Below are positions 464-7,321 of a stretch of DNA of 12,969 bases, one piece after another. Numbering within the stretch: the first letter of the stretch is position 1; every line of letters starts with the position of its first letter. The stretch comes from a virus (Duplodnaviria; Heunggongvirae; Uroviricota; Caudoviricetes), in IMG/VR virus record IMGVR_UViG_2602041671_000010, one strand, 5' to 3'. The notes below the pieces were generated by a model that saw nothing but the letters and a program-made list of their open reading frames with translations, had not been told where the DNA came from and ran no database searches. The translations under genes were made by a program, and so were the position numbers.

Positions 464-745
464 TTACCGCCGTAACCGCTCCGGCTTCTTCCAGTGGTAC
501 GTGATTTTCTCCTTCTCCCGATACATCTCCACGCGGCGACGGTATGCCAGCAACTCAAGGACTCTGGTTCGTATGTTGCGCATATCCACGCCGTTAAGCT
601 CAATACCATCACGGCGCATCACCTCAGCAACCACACGCGCATAATTTTCGGCGGTCACGCTGTCCGGCTGCGTGGCCTGTTCGTCAGCCTGCTGGCTGAT
701 TCCGGCAACGCGACGGATTAATCGCAGTAGTTCGGCTTCTGTCAT
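464..745 (-). CDS. hypothetical protein (93 aa) immediately downstream of terL
   Basis: ORF in track; ATG at 745 preceded by GAGGT Shine-Dalgarno about 7 nt upstream; 13 nt after the TerL stop; no recognisable motifs. Confidence 0.5.
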   Translation of the reverse strand: MTEAELLRLIRRVAGISQQADEQATQPDSVTAENYARVVAEVMRRDGIELNGVDMRNIRTRVLELLAYRRRVEMYREKEKITYHWKKPERLRR

Positions 746-758
746 GCTGCTGACCTCA

Positions 759-2420
759 TTACACCCCGCTAAATTCTTCCAGTTTCTGGCGGTGGCTGTC
801 GCTTATATCAAAAGCAAAATCCTCATGCTCTGCCTGGAATGTACCAAACGCCATCAGCGCCGCCACGCTCGGGTCTATCTTGTTCGGTGATTTTTTCTTG
901 TTCGGCTTGATATTGGCGTTCGCGTCACTCTGCATCACGACGTTACTCATCGACCAGGACAACACCGGATCGCCACGATGCACAATCACCCTGCGGTTAA
1001 CAAAAACTTCGAACGATTTCGCCGCCGGACTGAATCTGAGGTAGGTTTGCGGGAACGGCTCCACCTCAAAACCAGCCCCCTGTAATTGCGTCCTGAGATG
1101 CGTGGCGTTCCACGTATCAAAGCCCACCAGCCTGATATTAAATTTCTCCGCATCCTGCATGATGTCATCTCTGATCCGGTCGTAATCAATGCAGTCACCT
1201 GGCGTTGTGCGTATCCAGCCCGCTTTAGCCCACTGGCGATAGACAGCGCGGTTTTTATTGGCGGGGTTCTGTAGCTGGAACTCCGGCAGATAATGACGGG
1301 AAACCAGCATGATATTTTTACCGACCGGAAAGGCATAGCACACGCTGGAAATATCGCTGGTTGATGATAAGTCCAGCCCCGCGTAACACTCCTGCCCGTG
1401 TAAATCTTCCTCCGTGAACGTTCCGGCACACTCAGCCCATGCGCCGTTACCCATCCACGGGGTAGCCCCCTGGCACCAGATATTAAATCGCTTTGTCATC
1501 ATCTCCACCCATTGCGACGGAATACCCCGCGCTTTCTGGATGGTTGAGGCCAGTTTTTCACGATCCACGGAAACATCGATGTTAGGGTTAGCCTTTATCC
1601 ACATCGCCGGATCATCAACCTCGTTTTCGTCGTCCAGCTCGTAAATCAGCACAAAAATTGAATCGTTGACCTCTTCGCCGTCCAGGATCTGGCAGCAATA
1701 ATCATAGTGCTGTTTACAGGTTGAAACGACGTTACTGCCCGATGTGGTAATGGCAAATAACAGCCCTTCGGGACGTGCGCCCATCCCCAGCTCAAGCGCG
1801 GAATAAACGCCGTTATCGGGGTGTAGGTGGTATTCGTCCACGATGGAAAGGCTTGGGTTTGTGCCCTCGATGGTTGCCGCTTTTGCTGCCAGCGGCTTTA
1901 ACAGGCTGTTGCTTTTCGGGTGCATCACCTTGTGGGCCTGAATATTCACCCGCCTGCGTAACGGTCGGGATAAAAGGCACATCTGACGCGCATCATCAAA
2001 AACGATCCGCGCCTGGTCACGGCTCACCGCTGCGGTGTAAATATCCTGCTGCCCGTTCTCCATAATCAGAAACCAGTTAGCCAGAATCGCGGCGGTCGTG
2101 GATTTCGCATTTTTGCGCGGCACTTCGATAAAGGCGCTCGTGTATTTGCGCCGTCCGGTGGCCTTAACCTTAAAGCCGAGGATGCACGCAAAGGCGAACT
2201 GCTGCCACGGCTCCAGCTCAATGGGTCTGCCACGCATCGGCCCTTTTACGTGCAGGCACACCCTGGAAAAGGCAATAAACCGCTCCACAACCTCACGATC
2301 GAACGTGTAAAGGGGGCTTTCAAGGTCCGAAAAGTACCGTTTAACGGCCTGTTTCAGCCGTTTACAGGCCGGAATTTTGCCCGTTTTTACGTCTTCTGCG
2401 TACTTATTCCAGGCGGTCAA
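759..2420 (-). CDS. terL: terminase large subunit (553 aa)
   Basis: Long ORF of typical TerL size; P-loop-like segment VPRKNAKSTTAA near the N-terminus and acidic C-terminal half consistent with ATPase plus nuclease domains; start overlaps the TerS 3' end by 17 nt as in coupled terminase genes. Confidence 0.88.
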   Translation of the reverse strand: MTAWNKYAEDVKTGKIPACKRLKQAVKRYFSDLESPLYTFDREVVERFIAFSRVCLHVKGPMRGRPIELEPWQQFAFACILGFKVKATGRRKYTSAFIEVPRKNAKSTTAAILANWFLIMENGQQDIYTAAVSRDQARIVFDDARQMCLLSRPLRRRVNIQAHKVMHPKSNSLLKPLAAKAATIEGTNPSLSIVDEYHLHPDNGVYSALELGMGARPEGLLFAITTSGSNVVSTCKQHYDYCCQILDGEEVNDSIFVLIYELDDENEVDDPAMWIKANPNIDVSVDREKLASTIQKARGIPSQWVEMMTKRFNIWCQGATPWMGNGAWAECAGTFTEEDLHGQECYAGLDLSSTSDISSVCYAFPVGKNIMLVSRHYLPEFQLQNPANKNRAVYRQWAKAGWIRTTPGDCIDYDRIRDDIMQDAEKFNIRLVGFDTWNATHLRTQLQGAGFEVEPFPQTYLRFSPAAKSFEVFVNRRVIVHRGDPVLSWSMSNVVMQSDANANIKPNKKKSPNKIDPSVAALMAFGTFQAEHEDFAFDISDSHRQKLEEFSGV

Positions 2421-2760
2421 GCTCGTCCTCTTCTTCTGTTTCCGGTGGATTTTTACGGCGGCTTATCGGGTCAAAACCGAGCAAGGAGGCCATTTTTATC
2501 ATCACTCTTTCAGCGTCGGATTTTGCGCTTAATGCGGGGTTTCTGCTCTCGCCGCCCTGACTGTTAACAATGCTGAACCCGCGCGCCGCAAGGTCTGCAA
2601 CGGCTTTCCGGTAAATGGAGTAGTTGACACAATACAGTTCCAGATTGCTCCAGTCGGCGGGGGTCAGGTCTCCCCGTTCCGCAAGCTGCCGCGATTTTTC
2701 CCGCCACTGCTTCACGGCGATGTCATCCAGGTAGGCGGGGGCTTTCGGTGGTCTTGCCAT
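2404..2760 (-). CDS. terS: terminase small subunit, P27-like family (118 aa from ATG 2760; ORF track extends to 2805)
   Basis: N-terminus MARPPKAPAYL resembles the GRPPKP-type start I recall for P27-family TerS; lies directly upstream of and overlapping terL; neither candidate start has a clear SD, so the start is uncertain. Confidence 0.72.
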   Translation of the reverse strand: MARPPKAPAYLDDIAVKQWREKSRQLAERGDLTPADWSNLELYCVNYSIYRKAVADLAARGFSIVNSQGGESRNPALSAKSDAERVMIKMASLLGFDPISRRKNPPETEEEDELDRLE

Positions 2761-2884
2761 GCTTATTTTTTTCGCCAGATTATTTTTCAAAAAATTCCCG
2801 TGCATAAAAATTTGAGGAGGCGTTCGGTGCCCGGCGGGGTCGGGTTTGTCCTGAAAACGCCCCCCACCCCGTCATACAGCCTCA

Positions 2885-3067
2885 TCAGCGATTGCGGAAA
2901 CATTCCATAACCTCGCGGTCACGGTCGGTTAATCGCTTCGCTGTGATGCGTTCTGCGCGTCCTGACGCTTTATCTTTATGCCCTGTTTCCTGTGTCTTCC
3001 ATGCGTCACGCTGCCTTATAAGTCCACGGATAAGGCGGTTTTGTTCCCGCTCATTCATCAGCGTCAT
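2885..3067 (-). CDS. small basic hypothetical protein (60 aa) between HNH and terS; may not be real
   Basis: ATG at 3067 in the frame of track ORF 2885..3289; highly charged helical-looking sequence; weak RBS; sits in a 245-bp HNH-terS gap that may instead hold a cos site. Confidence 0.3.
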   Translation of the reverse strand: MTLMNEREQNRLIRGLIRQRDAWKTQETGHKDKASGRAERITAKRLTDRDREVMECFRNR

Positions 3068-3491
3068 ACATCCAGTTATTGCGGTTAGCGGCCCGTTCTT
3101 CCTCTTCACGAAATCCACCTGCGGCACGCTTGCTTTTTGTTGCCGGATCAAGCCATTTCGTTTTCTGGTTATGACACGCCTGGCACAATGGTTGATGGTT
3201 CCATTCGGGCCAGAAGAGAACATCATCACCGCCATTAATCGGGATAATGTGATCCACCACCACGGCGGGCGTATATATCCCCTTCTCAAGGCATCGCACG
3301 CATAACGGGTTTTTACTCAGATACATGGCGCGGTATTTGTCCCACTGTCTGGAATATCCACGCGCGCGGCGGTGTCCTCGTCTGGCATCCTCTGCACGCC
3401 ATGCCGCCCGCCTGTGCTCCTCACACTTGCCGGATTTAACGCGCCTGTTACAGCCTGGTTCTGTGCATCGTCTTAATGGTTGCCACGGCAT
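3051..3491 (-). CDS. HNH endonuclease (146 aa), terminase-associated
   Basis: Cys pairs and catalytic-type motif: CNRRV...C, CVRC, VDHIIPINGG, QPLCQACHNQK; located immediately upstream of terS-terL as in HK97-like cos phages; start overlaps the stop of the upstream connector gene. Confidence 0.88.
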   Translation of the reverse strand: MPWQPLRRCTEPGCNRRVKSGKCEEHRRAAWRAEDARRGHRRARGYSRQWDKYRAMYLSKNPLCVRCLEKGIYTPAVVVDHIIPINGGDDVLFWPEWNHQPLCQACHNQKTKWLDPATKSKRAAGGFREEEERAANRNNWMYDADE

Positions 3492-3787
3492 CAGTACACC
3501 CCCACATCACGGTAAGCCGTCCAGAGTGCGCCAATCGTCATGGGTACGCGTGTTTTTGCGTTATCCGCGACAATCTGGCGATTCTCATACAGGTGAGCGA
3601 TAAACATCATGCAGCCAATCTTTATGGCTGGCGTGAACTCCAGCCCGTCATCAAAGCGCCTGCCTATGTGTATCTGGCACGCCTCAAGCGATGCGGCAAT
3701 GTATCCGCTGATTAACTGGTCTTCCTCGTCTCCATCGATACGGCAATGGAGTTTCACTTCTTCCAGGGTGATAAGTTCTTCTGTCAT
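3491..3787 (-). CDS. head-tail connector protein, gp6-like (98 aa)
   Basis: Size, position between head closure gene and HNH, and overall sequence character typical of phage gp6-like connector proteins; assignment by recognition, not search. Confidence 0.65.
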   Translation of the reverse strand: MTEELITLEEVKLHCRIDGDEEDQLISGYIAASLEACQIHIGRRFDDGLEFTPAIKIGCMMFIAHLYENRQIVADNAKTRVPMTIGALWTAYRDVGVY

Positions 3788-4122
3788 TTTTCCGCGCCCT
3801 CACGACAAAGAATTTCAAGGCGTGTCCTGGCGACATCCGGCAACGGCTGCCCGATGATATTCAGTACACGCCCCGCCAGCGGCCCCGTACTGACCTTTAT
3901 CCGGCTGGTGGCGTTGATGTCCTTCCGGTACCGTATCCAGATCCTTACGGTACCAATCGCCAGCTCTGCGCCCGATGAAATGGCCTCCTTGCTGCTGATC
4001 ATGTTCACGCTTGCCCAGAGTGTGTGACCGTCCTCCCACGTTTCGAGTATTTCGCCCGTCATGGCTCTGGTCTGTTTCAGGGTCTGAATCGTTATCCTGT
4101 CACGCAGTCGCCCTATGTTCAT
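3784..4122 (-). CDS. head closure / head-tail joining protein (about 112 aa; likely start ATG 4122, track ORF extends to 4164)
   Basis: MNIGRLRDRITIQ N-terminus is typical of head-tail joining family proteins; ATG 4120-4122 overlaps the portal stop (ATGA-type overlap), whereas the track start would overlap portal by 46 nt. Confidence 0.68.
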   Translation of the reverse strand: MNIGRLRDRITIQTLKQTRAMTGEILETWEDGHTLWASVNMISSKEAISSGAELAIGTVRIWIRYRKDINATSRIKVSTGPLAGRVLNIIGQPLPDVARTRLEILCREGAEK

Positions 4123-5330
4123 TCCGGTTTTTCTCCCTCGCTGATTTTTACTTCCTGTTTCCATGCCTGACTGAACTCATCACCACCATCACGCGGTGAC
4201 AGTCCTTCACGTTCGCGGGCTTCGTTCGGGCACATAACGCCGGATTTGATGCCGCGCTCATAGGTGGCAAAGCGTTCGCCAGGTGTGGCCCGTAACAGGT
4301 CCGCGCTGTCAAACTCCACCTGATACCGGATACCAGGTACAGGCGAGGCCACCAGCAGGGCGTTTTTTATCTGCTGCTCAAAGTTCGCCAGCCACGGGCG
4401 CATCGTCATGGTGAGAAATGCGCGGCTTGCCTCGCTGAAATTGCTGTAGGTGCTGTTGCTGTATTCCTGCAAAAAAATCGGCGAGACGTTGAACATTCGG
4501 GCGATGTCTTCAATGGTAAAGCGACGGGAGGCCAGCCATTCAGCATCCTGATTACTCATGCCCAGCTGCTGATAGCTCATCCCCCCTTCAAGGATGGGCG
4601 TTTTTCCGGCGTTTCTGGCCCCTTTGTAGCGTTCCAGTGCGGCTAATGCCTGTTTGCCCTTCACGCCGTCCAGCCATTCGCCTGACGTGATAACCCCTGC
4701 CGCCATCATGCCATCACGCATCACGCTCGCGCCGTGGCGTTGTTGGGCCAGCCCAAGCCCCAGCGATTCGCGGCAGATGGTTACAGGTGAGCGCCCCATA
4801 AAGCCGTCATCCGTGGAGTAACGAAGGTGAAGTACTTCCCATGGTAAATAGTTGTGGGTGTTTCCGGTGTAGGCGTCAGTGATGCAATAGCGCCAGTTGT
4901 GTTCGCCTGTCTGCTCCACGTTCACCGACTGCGGCGGGTAAGGATGTAAAGCCGCCGGAAAACCATCACGCCCCCACTGAATAACCGCATAAGCATTACC
5001 GTTTAACAGGCAGTGGCGGATCATCATTCGCTTAAACTGGTAGGGAGTCTGCCACGCGTTCGGGCGCTCGTTGAGGATGTGATCGACCGGATGAGAATCA
5101 AGCCACTCGCGGGCCTCCTTCCCCTTCTCATTGCGTACCAGGTACAGGTAACACGGCATAGTAGCCACCGCCTCAGAGATGACCGTGACGGCGTTCATGA
5201 CGGCGGGCAGTGATTCCGCTGTCCCCGATGATACGTACTCACCCGCCCCCGTGTTCGATGTGCCAGCCAGCGCCATAAATTCATCAAGCGTCATGCTGCG
5301 CTGCTCTTTTTTTCTTCTGAAAGGCCACAT
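4119..5330 (-). CDS. portal protein, HK97-like family (403 aa)
   Basis: Size and position between prohead protease and head closure genes; sequence has the overall character of HK97-family portal proteins. Confidence 0.85.
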   Translation of the reverse strand: MWPFRRKKEQRSMTLDEFMALAGTSNTGAGEYVSSGTAESLPAVMNAVTVISEAVATMPCYLYLVRNEKGKEAREWLDSHPVDHILNERPNAWQTPYQFKRMMIRHCLLNGNAYAVIQWGRDGFPAALHPYPPQSVNVEQTGEHNWRYCITDAYTGNTHNYLPWEVLHLRYSTDDGFMGRSPVTICRESLGLGLAQQRHGASVMRDGMMAAGVITSGEWLDGVKGKQALAALERYKGARNAGKTPILEGGMSYQQLGMSNQDAEWLASRRFTIEDIARMFNVSPIFLQEYSNSTYSNFSEASRAFLTMTMRPWLANFEQQIKNALLVASPVPGIRYQVEFDSADLLRATPGERFATYERGIKSGVMCPNEAREREGLSPRDGGDEFSQAWKQEVKISEGEKPE

Positions 5331-5331
5331 A

Positions 5332-5904
5332 TCACACCCCCGCTAAATCCACCCACCAGCGGCGATTATCCGCACGCGGCATTTTTTCGGGGTGCTGCTC
5401 ATACAGGGAACGGCGGGCCAGCTCCACGCCGGAATCAGGGTAAGCCGGAACGGATGTAACGGTAATTTCGTACAGTTCCGCCACCAGCACGGTGCGCACG
5501 CATGGTTCTGTTGTGGTATCCCATACATCCTTACGGGAACGAAAGCCAAAGCTCATGCCGGATATATCACCACGTTTAACCAGTTCGATAACGTCCCGCC
5601 CTGTGCTGGTATCCGGTGGGGTCAGTTCAAAGCGTAACCCTGTTTCGTCCTCTTCCAGTTTCAGCGTGCCGGAACGGGTACGCCCCAGTAACATGCTGTG
5701 GTCATGCTCATACAGGCCGCGAACGTCATTACCCGCTGCAAGCCATTCAGTAAACGCTCCCCGCTGGAATTTTTCGTAAAACTCACCCCATAACAGTTCT
5801 GAAAGCTTATCCCAGCGAACAACGTAGCCCGTCAGCGTACCGGCTCCGCTGGTGGTGATTTCCGATGACCGGATTTCCATACTCTTCATAATTTTTTCAC
5901 CCAT
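5332..5904 (-). CDS. prohead maturation protease, HK97 family (about 185-190 aa; start 5904 or 5889)
   Basis: Small protein between capsid and portal genes, 2 nt before the portal ATG; size and position match the HK97 prohead protease; ATG 5889 has a better SD (GGTGA) than 5904. Confidence 0.82.
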   Translation of the reverse strand: MGEKIMKSMEIRSSEITTSGAGTLTGYVVRWDKLSELLWGEFYEKFQRGAFTEWLAAGNDVRGLYEHDHSMLLGRTRSGTLKLEEDETGLRFELTPPDTSTGRDVIELVKRGDISGMSFGFRSRKDVWDTTTEPCVRTVLVAELYEITVTSVPAYPDSGVELARRSLYEQHPEKMPRADNRRWWVDLAGV

Positions 5905-5943: not shown

Positions 5944-7100
5944 TTAATCGTCGTCCTGTGGCAGTTCCAGAATCTTGATCGCGTTCGAATCCACCACGCC
6001 ACCGCCTAAATATTTCTGCGTGAAAATTTTGATGAAGCCCGGCTCTGTGAGGTTGTCCGGTCTGGTGCGAACACCTGTTTCGTGATCAACAATGTAGTAA
6101 CCGCGCTTGAAGTCACCCAGGGCAATAACGTTATCAGGCATAAACTCCAGATATTCGACCGGAAGGCCCAGCAACGTATCAGGATCACCCGCCTGTAAAC
6201 GGTCGCGCCAGATGTAATCACCGTTCGCGTTCTTCACCTTCTGAAGTTTTGCCGCCGTCGTGGAGTTAACCACCCAGACCGCGTTTTTGCGGTATTTTTT
6301 ACGTAATGCAAATTTCAGGTCGATCAGCGGGTCCGCAGATGTCCACGCCAGAGATTCGGAAGGTTTAATTACCTGCAACGTACCAAAATCACGCTCTTTG
6401 TCGTTCTTCTCTGCACGGGGTACGGATAAAAAGCCTTTTGCTTTTTTGTCACCGTCGCCCACAACCAGATCGCTTTCTTCGGTTTCCGTGAAGGTGTCGC
6501 CAATCTCACCCGTCAGCCATGAAAGGATGTCCACATCGGAAAAATCCACGATTTCCTGTGTGGTGCGCGGGTACGCATAGACCGGATACAGCTTAATGCT
6601 CACCTCGTTAATCTGCGGGGTGCTGGTCTGTTCGCGTGCCTTACCCTCTTCACCGTGGTTAACGGTCGCACCGCCAGCGGAAACAAGCTGCTTAAACTCG
6701 TTGCTGCTGATTTTTTCACGGTACAGATGCGGCGCATGGTGGACTCATCCACCAGCATTCGCATGATTTCGGTGTTCAGTTCGGGGATAACGGTATAACC
6801 ACCATCAGCGGGAACGCCTGTACTTAATGCGCGGGTTTCACCTGTCAGAATGTAGCTGCGTAGTTCTGCGGGGTCAGTGGTCTGGCTGCTTTTACCTGGC
6901 TTGCTGCGCTCTTCGTCTGCAATGGCTTCAAGGCGGGAAATGTCTTTATCGAGGGATTCAGCTTTAGCGCGTAATTCGTCAAATTTTGCGCCCTCAGCAT
7001 CGTTAAGACTGCGGTTTTCTTTTTCCGCGTTCTCCAGCATGTCGCGCATCTGATTTTTAATGGCGGTTTTCTGCTGGCGTAATTCGATTATTCTCGGCAT
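5944..7100 (-). CDS. major capsid protein, HK97 fold, interrupted by a 1-nt frameshift in an A6 run (6711-6716); N-terminal coiled-coil delta domain
   Basis: N part (track ORF 6600..7145 from ATG 7100): coiled-coil then GETRALSTGVPADGGYTVIPELNTEIMRMLVDESTMRRICTV. C part (track ORF 5944..6603): my own translation of the same frame upstream of 6603 gives ISSNEFKQLVSAGGATVNHGEEG, continuing into LYPVYAYP...VVGDGDKKAKGFL, matching HK97-family conserved blocks. The two parts join if the run were A7. Confidence 0.8.
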
Positions 7101-7140
7101 AAAAAAAAGTCCTGGGGTTAAGTAAGGAACTCCAGGACGC
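7101..7140 (-). terminator. intrinsic terminator abutting the major capsid ATG
   Basis: Minus-strand RNA GCGUCCUGGAG-loop-CCCCAGGAC followed by U8, then AUG directly. Confidence 0.65.
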
Positions 7141-7321
7141 GGCAAAAACTCAACCGTTTTTCATAAGGGAATCAGCAATCGCACCGATCGTTTTCCCGCC
7201 TGGTAATGAATATTGGCGAGCACATTAACAGGCGGGAAAGTGGCCCCAGCGTCCTGGCACCACGGGCGAGAATAATCATGATTCAGTTCGGGTAAAATAT
7301 GCCGATCCGCTCAGTGAACAA
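7141..7321 (-). promoter_or_regulatory. candidate late promoter (-35 TTGTTC, 16-nt spacer, -10 TATTTT at 7294-7321) and roughly 185-nt structured leader
   Basis: Promoter-like hexamers read on the minus strand; leader contains an 11-bp stem (UUUCCCGCCUG/CAGGCGGGAAA) and a CCAGGACGC element complementary to the terminator 5' arm. Confidence 0.4.

Follow-up and report, generated by a model that had tools for sequence, protein, structure and literature searches.

Positions 2780-2870 of the window, by which we mean the whole stretch of viral DNA analysed here (12,969 nucleotides, IMG/VR record IMGVR_UViG_2602041671_000010), very probably constitute the cos site of an Escherichia coli capsid-forming PICI (cf-PICI) closely related to EcCIEDL933. 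A preliminary description of this DNA had proposed a cos site between the HNH endonuclease gene and terS. The proposal is borne out by a match with mapped cos sites, by the contig termini of a relative, by the point at which the record of KpCIDSM30104 breaks and by purifying selection on the blocks that make up the site.

The cf-PICIs are recently described, widespread satellites that form capsids of their own and restrict packaging to themselves. The window is such an element and a close relative of EcCIEDL933. It shares 99.5% identity with an island located between phoQ and roxA of E. coli 94-3024. The annotation of that island, with which the Pfam and PHROG assignments agree, comprises int, regulators and a RepA-type helicase (replication module), and also capsid, protease, portal and connector genes, then HNH, terS and terL; tail and lysis genes are absent. 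This content of integration, replication, capsid and packaging genes without tail or lysis genes identifies the architecture as that of a cf-PICI. Family and architecture are the same as in EcCIEDL933 and KpCIDSM30104 (Alqurainy et al. 2022 preprint; He et al. 2025 preprint). The prototype EcCIEDL933 originates from O157:H7 strains, and copies in O157:H7 strains are 98% identical to the window across 2404-3491. The genes of the window that are relevant here are all encoded on the minus strand:

5944-7145, minus strand: major capsid gene, split here into two ORFs
5332-5904, minus strand: prohead protease
4119-5330, minus strand: portal
3784-4164, minus strand: head closure
3491-3787, minus strand: head-tail connector
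3051-3491, minus strand: HNH endonuclease, 146 aa (Pfam HNH PF01844, E = 1.8e-8; phrog_144, E = 8e-45; RefSeq CDS)
2885-3058, minus strand: small gene, 57 aa (phrog_3173, E = 6e-37; RefSeq CDS)
2404-2760, minus strand: terS, P27 family, 118 aa from the ATG at 2760 (Pfam Terminase_4, E = 1.3e-23; TIGR01558, E = 1.9e-16)
759-2420, minus strand: terL, 553 aa (Pfam TerL_ATPase and TerL_nuclease; phrog_9, E = 9e-178)

As the preliminary description had stated, the HNH gene adjoins terS and terL; the minus-strand order is HNH (3051-3491), cos core (2780-2870), terS (2404-2760) and terL (759-2420). An HNH gene adjoining terS/terL marks cos-type HK97-like systems.

The local annotation was corrected in that the start of terS was moved and a small ORF was accepted as a real gene. 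The interval 2806-3050, previously read as a 245-bp gap, is not a gap: it holds the conserved gene 2885-3058, and terS starts at 2760, not at 2805. The ATG at 2805 sits within a conserved, non-coding cos block, the corresponding triplet is ACG in 27 of 32 relatives, and in all relatives terS starts at the conserved ATGGCAAGACCACC, which is position 2760 in the window and also the RefSeq start; the ATG at 2805 is therefore not the start of terS. The small gene had been regarded as a weak 60-aa ORF and a possible artefact of the GC-rich block. This explanation has to be abandoned, as the gene is conserved, affiliates with phrog_3173 over its full length and is a RefSeq CDS. With 2885-3058 coding and terS beginning at 2760, the non-coding interval is reduced to 2761-2884 (124 nt).

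The small gene belongs to the same operon and lies immediately upstream of cos, its start overlapping the HNH stop (ATGAATGA). Among the relatives, 86 distinct variants of the protein were found, which differ by an in-frame 7-aa indel and have M(N/T)E...R(D/E)RE(V/L)(M/R)ECFRNR in common (MNEREQ...ECFRNR in the window copy). The protein is basic, and its AF2 model consists of two helices with a disordered linker (pLDDT 77). It yielded no match in Pfam or NCBIfam, and its homologues are named only 'hypothetical protein'. The gene is missing from the Xenorhabdus, Aeromonas, Citrobacter and Symbiopectobacterium lineages, which retain the cos blocks. Near the island end, directly 3' of terL, is a 93-aa hypothetical ORF (464-745, minus strand; RefSeq WP_000133415.1). 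In the packaging module of EcCIEDL933, a mutant in 'hypothetical gene 1792' has severely reduced transfer (cf-PICI preprint); gene 1792 could correspond to the small ORF at 2885-3058 or to the 93-aa ORF at 464-745. In phage HK97 (NC_002167.1, 39100-39732; locus L127), the HNH gene and cos likewise enclose an unannotated ORF, about 68 aa long, at about 294-500 of that locus. The ATG of this ORF overlaps with the stop codon of the HNH gene (ATGA), and its sequence is unrelated to the cf-PICI small ORF.

Conservation of the interval was followed in 33 loci, one genome per species, which were collected by the TerS protein alone, so that the upstream DNA played no part in their selection; 32 sequences entered the identity figures. 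All 33 loci have the same layout, except for one that is truncated and one that carries a deletion. The segments of the interval are listed below with their mean pairwise identities:

2858-2870, minus strand: G-block GGGGTGGGGGGCG, upstream cos element; identity 0.80, with GGGTGGGGG nearly invariant in 32 loci
2845-2857, minus strand: conserved left part of the spacer, TTTTCAGGACAAA; identity 0.69
2832-2844, minus strand: variable spacer segment, 13 nt; identity 0.39
2827-2831, minus strand: GGCAC, last duplex bases of the predicted right genome end; identity 0.86
2817-2826, minus strand: predicted 10-nt 3' cohesive end, the C-rich 10-mer 5'-CGAACGCCTC-3'; identity 0.79
2804-2816, minus strand: CTCAAATTTTTAT, +1 to +13 of the predicted left end; identity 0.89, the highest of all blocks
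2780-2803, minus strand: GCACGGGAATTTTTTGAAAAATAA, +14 to +37, predicted TerS site (cosB-like); identity 0.80
2761-2779, minus strand: terS leader and ribosome-binding region; identity 0.50, with indels that are not multiples of three

In the terS comparison, mean pairwise identity amounted to 0.85 at codon positions 1 and 2 and to 0.49 at position 3. The cos blocks, at 0.79-0.89 in the 32 loci, are thus under a constraint equal to that on the replacement sites of terS, which points to strong purifying selection. In all 102 distinct cos cores the G-block and the 10-mer are 30-33 nt apart, and in 88 of them exactly 31 nt; the length of the spacer matters and its sequence does not. Across the cf-PICIs (cos cores of loci L004-L305), the 10-mer occurs in 23 variants of the pattern C(G/A)NCNGCC(C/T)C between nearly fixed flanks. 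The 10-mer of the window, CGAACGCCTC, is three or four positions away from the commonest cf-PICI 10-mers, CACCCGCCCC and CGCCCGCCCC. The composite motif GGGTGGGGG-N38-48-CTCAAATTTTT has a single occurrence in the window (2806-2869, minus strand) and was found in none of 200 dinucleotide-preserving shuffles. The GC-rich block GGCGTTCGGTGCCCGGCGGGGTCGGG to which attention had been drawn occupies plus-strand positions 2819-2844 (22 of 26 positions G or C), but represents only part of the site. It spans eight of the ten overhang bases, GGCAC and the non-conserved spacer, and the best-conserved elements, namely the G-block, CTCAAATTTTT and the T/A-tract block, flank it on both sides.

Conserved non-coding blocks directly upstream of terS that contain A/T tracts, as these do, might also be a promoter, a terminator or an RNA structure controlling terS/terL, with cos located elsewhere. 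We consider this highly improbable. Neither a sigma-70-like promoter nor an intrinsic terminator was found on the coding strand between 2400 and 3500, folding 2761-2884 as RNA gave a z-score of -0.78, a stability equalled or exceeded by 49 of 200 shuffles, and the interval has no Rfam match at E <= 1. The segment proximal to the start codon, 2761-2779, is poorly conserved, and a control element would leave both the contig termini of the relative and the match with mapped cos sites unexplained.

The preliminary description had recommended a comparison with the cos sites of HK97-like phages, and the window matches the layout and spacing of the cos sites of SfI, SfV, ST64B and HK97. The Shigella and Salmonella phages SfI, SfV, SfII, SfIV and ST64B possess a P27-family TerS with an adjacent HNH protein, and their order of HNH, cos, terS and terL is that of the window. 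The TerS of the window is 36% identical to that of SfV (E = 4e-21) and its HNH protein 37% identical to the SfV homolog (E = 6e-17). At the circularised junctions of SfI, SfV and ST64B, GGGGAGGGGCGGG is followed by 31 nt, TGCCCGCCCC, (G/C)TCG(T/A)(T/A)TTTTTAT and ACCCGCGAAAAATGAAA, that is, by a C-rich 10-mer, a T-tract and a block consisting of a GC-core plus A-tract. The window reads GGGGTGGGGGGCG, 31 nt, CGAACGCCTC, CTCAAATTTTTAT and GCACGGGAATTTTTTGAAAAATAA, with the order and the 31-nt spacing of SfI and ST64B. Directly after the 10-mer, SfI continues with GTCGTTTTTTTAT, SfV with ATCG... and ST64B with CTCGAATTTTTAT; CCCGCCCCCTCGAATTTTTAT of ST64B differs at two positions from the cf-PICI consensus CCCGCCCCCTCAAATTTTTAC. 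For SfI, run-off sequences obtained from virion DNA and compared with the prophage left a 10-nt gap, 5'-TGCCCGCCCC-3', which is the cohesive end, and according to the same authors the cos of SfV is identical apart from one base (PMC3636060). Because its position equals that of the mapped SfI end, CGAACGCCTC (2826-2817) is predicted as the cohesive end of the window element. The window differs from the SfI-type phages in its 10-mer, CGAACGCCTC, and in the block at +14 to +37, which is ACCCGCGAAAAATGAAATTTAA in these phages and GCACGGGAATTTTTTGAAAAATAA in the window. Moreover, the SfI-type phages are complete phages of 37-41 kb without a small ORF between HNH and cos, whereas the window element is a satellite of about 15 kb that has one.

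In HK97, cos lies between the HNH gene (gp74) and terS (gp1), with TerL being gp2, and consists of the G-block GGGCAGGGGGGGGG, 32 nt, CGCCGCCAAA and then the left end GTTTGAATTTAACGCTAACCCGATTTTTTT. This phage has 10-nt 3' overhangs, a minimal TerS site at +15 to +29 and a cleavage reaction stimulated by gp74 (PMC11331095, PMC9410871). The HK97 TerS site and the block at +14 to +37 of the window occupy the same offset and both combine a GC-rich core with an A/T tract behind it, the SfI counterpart being ACCCGCGAAAAATGAAA. Neither the HK97 overhang CGCCGCCAAA nor its flanks match the window, and the cos sites of HK97 and of the cf-PICIs are different at most positions. No sequence similarity was detected between the TerS of the window and HK97 gp1, and Pfam Terminase_4 does not match gp1. 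A transfer of the HK97 TerS-DNA contacts by protein homology was consequently rejected in favour of a purely positional analogy.

The cos of lambda follows the same three-part logic, with cosQ upstream for termination, cosN for nicking and cosB for TerS binding beside the terminase genes. The lambda overhang is 12 nt long and 5', its TerS is of the gpNu1 type, with R sites and IHF, and lambda is not known to use an HNH protein. A lambda-type cos was considered for the window and rejected in view of the P27 (Terminase_4) TerS, the presence of an HNH gene and the ends of the relative's contig, at which the 10-mer is absent rather than duplicated.

This contig, IMG/VR 3300022664_000095 (15,518 bp), represents a related, complete element of cf-PICI size that was available in two pieces, L207 followed by L069. 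It begins exactly at CTCAAATTTTTACGCACGG (i.e. CTCAAATTTTT) and ends exactly with ...CAAGCCGCAAGGCAC (...GGCAC). In integrated relatives exactly CACCCGCCCC stands between these ends, and this is the only sequence missing from the contig. L207 plus L069 aligns contiguously to the record vB_KppS-Ant across the join, and the reverse join, aligned to an integrated Klebsiella copy, has about 10 gap positions; since the order of the pieces is confirmed by these alignments, the termini are true contig ends. A 3' overhang trimmed off by end repair would explain why the 10-mer is gone from both ends, whereas a 5' overhang would have been filled in and kept. The ten nucleotides missing in this one contig and the match with SfI and HK97 suggest indirectly that the cohesive end has a 3' overhang of 10 nt.

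The assembly behind the record vB_KppS-Ant (LR881103, 16,548 bp) came from a lysate grown on Klebsiella pneumoniae DSM 30104; like contig 3300022664_000095, it appears to derive from packaged DNA. The record shares more than 99% identity with part of the DSM 30104 chromosome, which identifies it as the cf-PICI KpCIDSM30104. KpCIDSM30104 is efficiently packaged and forms cohesive-end concatemers (cf-PICI preprint). The record ends with ...GGGGTGGGGGAGGTTTTCAGGAC (...TTTTCAGGAC) and starts with ACGAAAAGG..., 22 nt before terS. Relative to the chromosome of the same strain (ATCC 13883, L129) it lacks 65 nt, consisting of 21 nt, CACCCGCCCC and 34 nt. The missing stretch thus brackets the 10-mer, and the assembly breaks around the predicted cut. 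The same record (L002, LR881103.1, 'Escherichia phage vB_KppS-Ant') is called a filamentous ssDNA phage in its source paper; its genes, among them int, primase, capsid, portal, HNH, terS and terL, are those of the cf-PICI KpCIDSM30104. Following terL, it carries a 2.3-kb gene annotated as tape measure protein that the E. coli window does not have.

A metagenome scan for contigs starting at the site returned 57 further matches, none of them terminal, and a scan of viral contigs with the E. coli-type pattern returned no contig starting at the site; neither scan yielded a particle-derived sequence of the window element. Other loci that end near the motif (L018, L050, L090, L101 and L121) were evaluated as physical ends and discarded: L018 and L216 tile without a gap, L101 and L121 appear to be cut at gene boundaries, and the ends of L018 and L090 may be breaks in draft assemblies. 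Only L207 plus L069 passed the check as true termini.

These ends also bear on where the strands are cut. Nicks within the variable spacer (about 2832-2844) instead of the C-rich 10-mer are very unlikely, even if the SfV record NC_003444 starts 17 nt upstream of SfI +1, within the spacer-equivalent region, and the spacers of many lineages, C-rich and then G-containing, display a loose two-fold symmetry. The SfI study maps the 10-nt gap directly, and the SfV cos is the same but for one base (PMC3636060). Furthermore, the termini of contig 3300022664_000095 flank the 10-mer and not the spacer, and targets of a nuclease are expected to be conserved, while the spacer is the least conserved segment. 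The GenBank start of SfV was itself tried as a nick position and set aside, as it is contradicted by the SfI mapping (PMC3636060). A covarying spacer hairpin (CCCG..CGGG, CCTC..GAGG) was considered and is doubtful: in every lineage C-rich sequence is followed by a stretch with G, which gives short pairings anyway, and the alignment of this segment is unreliable.

Headful (pac) packaging, in which the region would be a pac recognition site without fixed ends, is barely credible for this element. Recognition sites proximal to TerS are found in pac phages as well, but the HNH gene adjoins terS/terL here, the mark of cos-type HK97-like systems, DNA concatemers joined via cohesive ends are reported for the cf-PICI KpCIDSM30104, and contig 3300022664_000095 has unique ends from which precisely the 10-mer is missing.

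For a cos site of this anatomy, packaging of the island might proceed as follows. After induction the island would excise and replicate as concatemers, as is known for the cf-PICI family. Its P27-family TerS would bind the block from +14 to +37 (2780-2803), just 3' of the cut, with its GC-core and T/A-tract; the assignment of this putative TerS site draws on position and conservation only, because sequence similarity between the TerS of the window and HK97 gp1 is not detectable. Aided by the HNH protein, TerL would nick both strands 10 nt apart, at 2816/2817 on the minus strand and at 2826/2827 on the plus strand. These predicted nick positions are transferred from relatives by homology, and HNH and TerL presumably share the two nicks between them. 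The result would be a 10-nt 3' cohesive end, 5'-CGAACGCCTC-3', on the gene-sense strand, as judged from homologues with observed ends. Packaging would then proceed from terS/terL around the element and stop at the next cos. The G-block, 31 nt (about three helical turns) upstream, probably serves in termination or positions the nuclease, a role suggested by its location, which resembles that of lambda cosQ. In EcCIEDL933, mutants in hnh, terS and terL lose transfer (cf-PICI preprint).

The preliminary description had also suggested that the specificity of the satellite could reside in this site. Packaging of EcCIEDL933 and of the HK97-type helper HK106 is mutually exclusive (cf-PICI preprint), and transfer of cf-PICIs needs their own HNH, TerS and TerL (EcCIEDL933/KpCIDSM30104 preprints). 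A contribution of the cos site to specificity is plausible on comparative grounds, as cos and TerS both differ from those of HK97-type helpers. A further-reaching and rather doubtful reading is that the cos core acts as a lineage-specific packaging address, in which the 10-mer, the block at +14 to +37 and the 57-aa protein (possibly the product of gene 1792) would jointly set the pairing of terminase and DNA. If this were true, several cf-PICIs and HNH-type helpers could share a cell without cross-packaging, and the small protein would be a new satellite-specific cos accessory factor.

The location of the cos site reveals no new mechanism. The HNH-terS arrangement of cos and the cohesive ends of cf-PICIs were already known, and in their searchable text the cf-PICI preprints (Alqurainy et al. 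2022; He et al. 2025) neither locate nor dissect the cos site; the base-level placement and the block structure are hence a modest addition. A cos core defined at base level provides the packaging exclusivity of cf-PICIs with a defined DNA target, for which about 2761-2884 would be the minimal fragment. The signature of G-block, 31 nt, C-rich 10-mer and CTCAAATTTTT can be used to recognise satellite genome ends in viromes and to orient assemblies.

The major capsid gene of the window consists of two ORFs, 6600-7145 and 5944-6603. They are separated by a 1-nt deletion in a homopolymer, the plus-strand T-run after position 6710, which is T6 in the window and T7 in E. coli 94-3024; the capsid CDS of the latter island is intact (1158 nt). 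The frameshift is either a true pseudogene, in which case the satellite is defective, or a homopolymer sequencing error. As the major capsid gene is frameshifted, the window copy may make no particles.

In Shigella flexneri SFBU1023 (CP182556.1; locus L128), the region homologous to about 2740-2845 of the window carries a deletion that fuses the cos spacer ...CAGGACAAACCCGA to codon 8 of terS. Two direct repeats, CCCCGCC, apparently gave rise to this deletion between them. The start of terS is lost, together with the predicted cohesive end and the cos blocks downstream, leaving an immobilised remnant.
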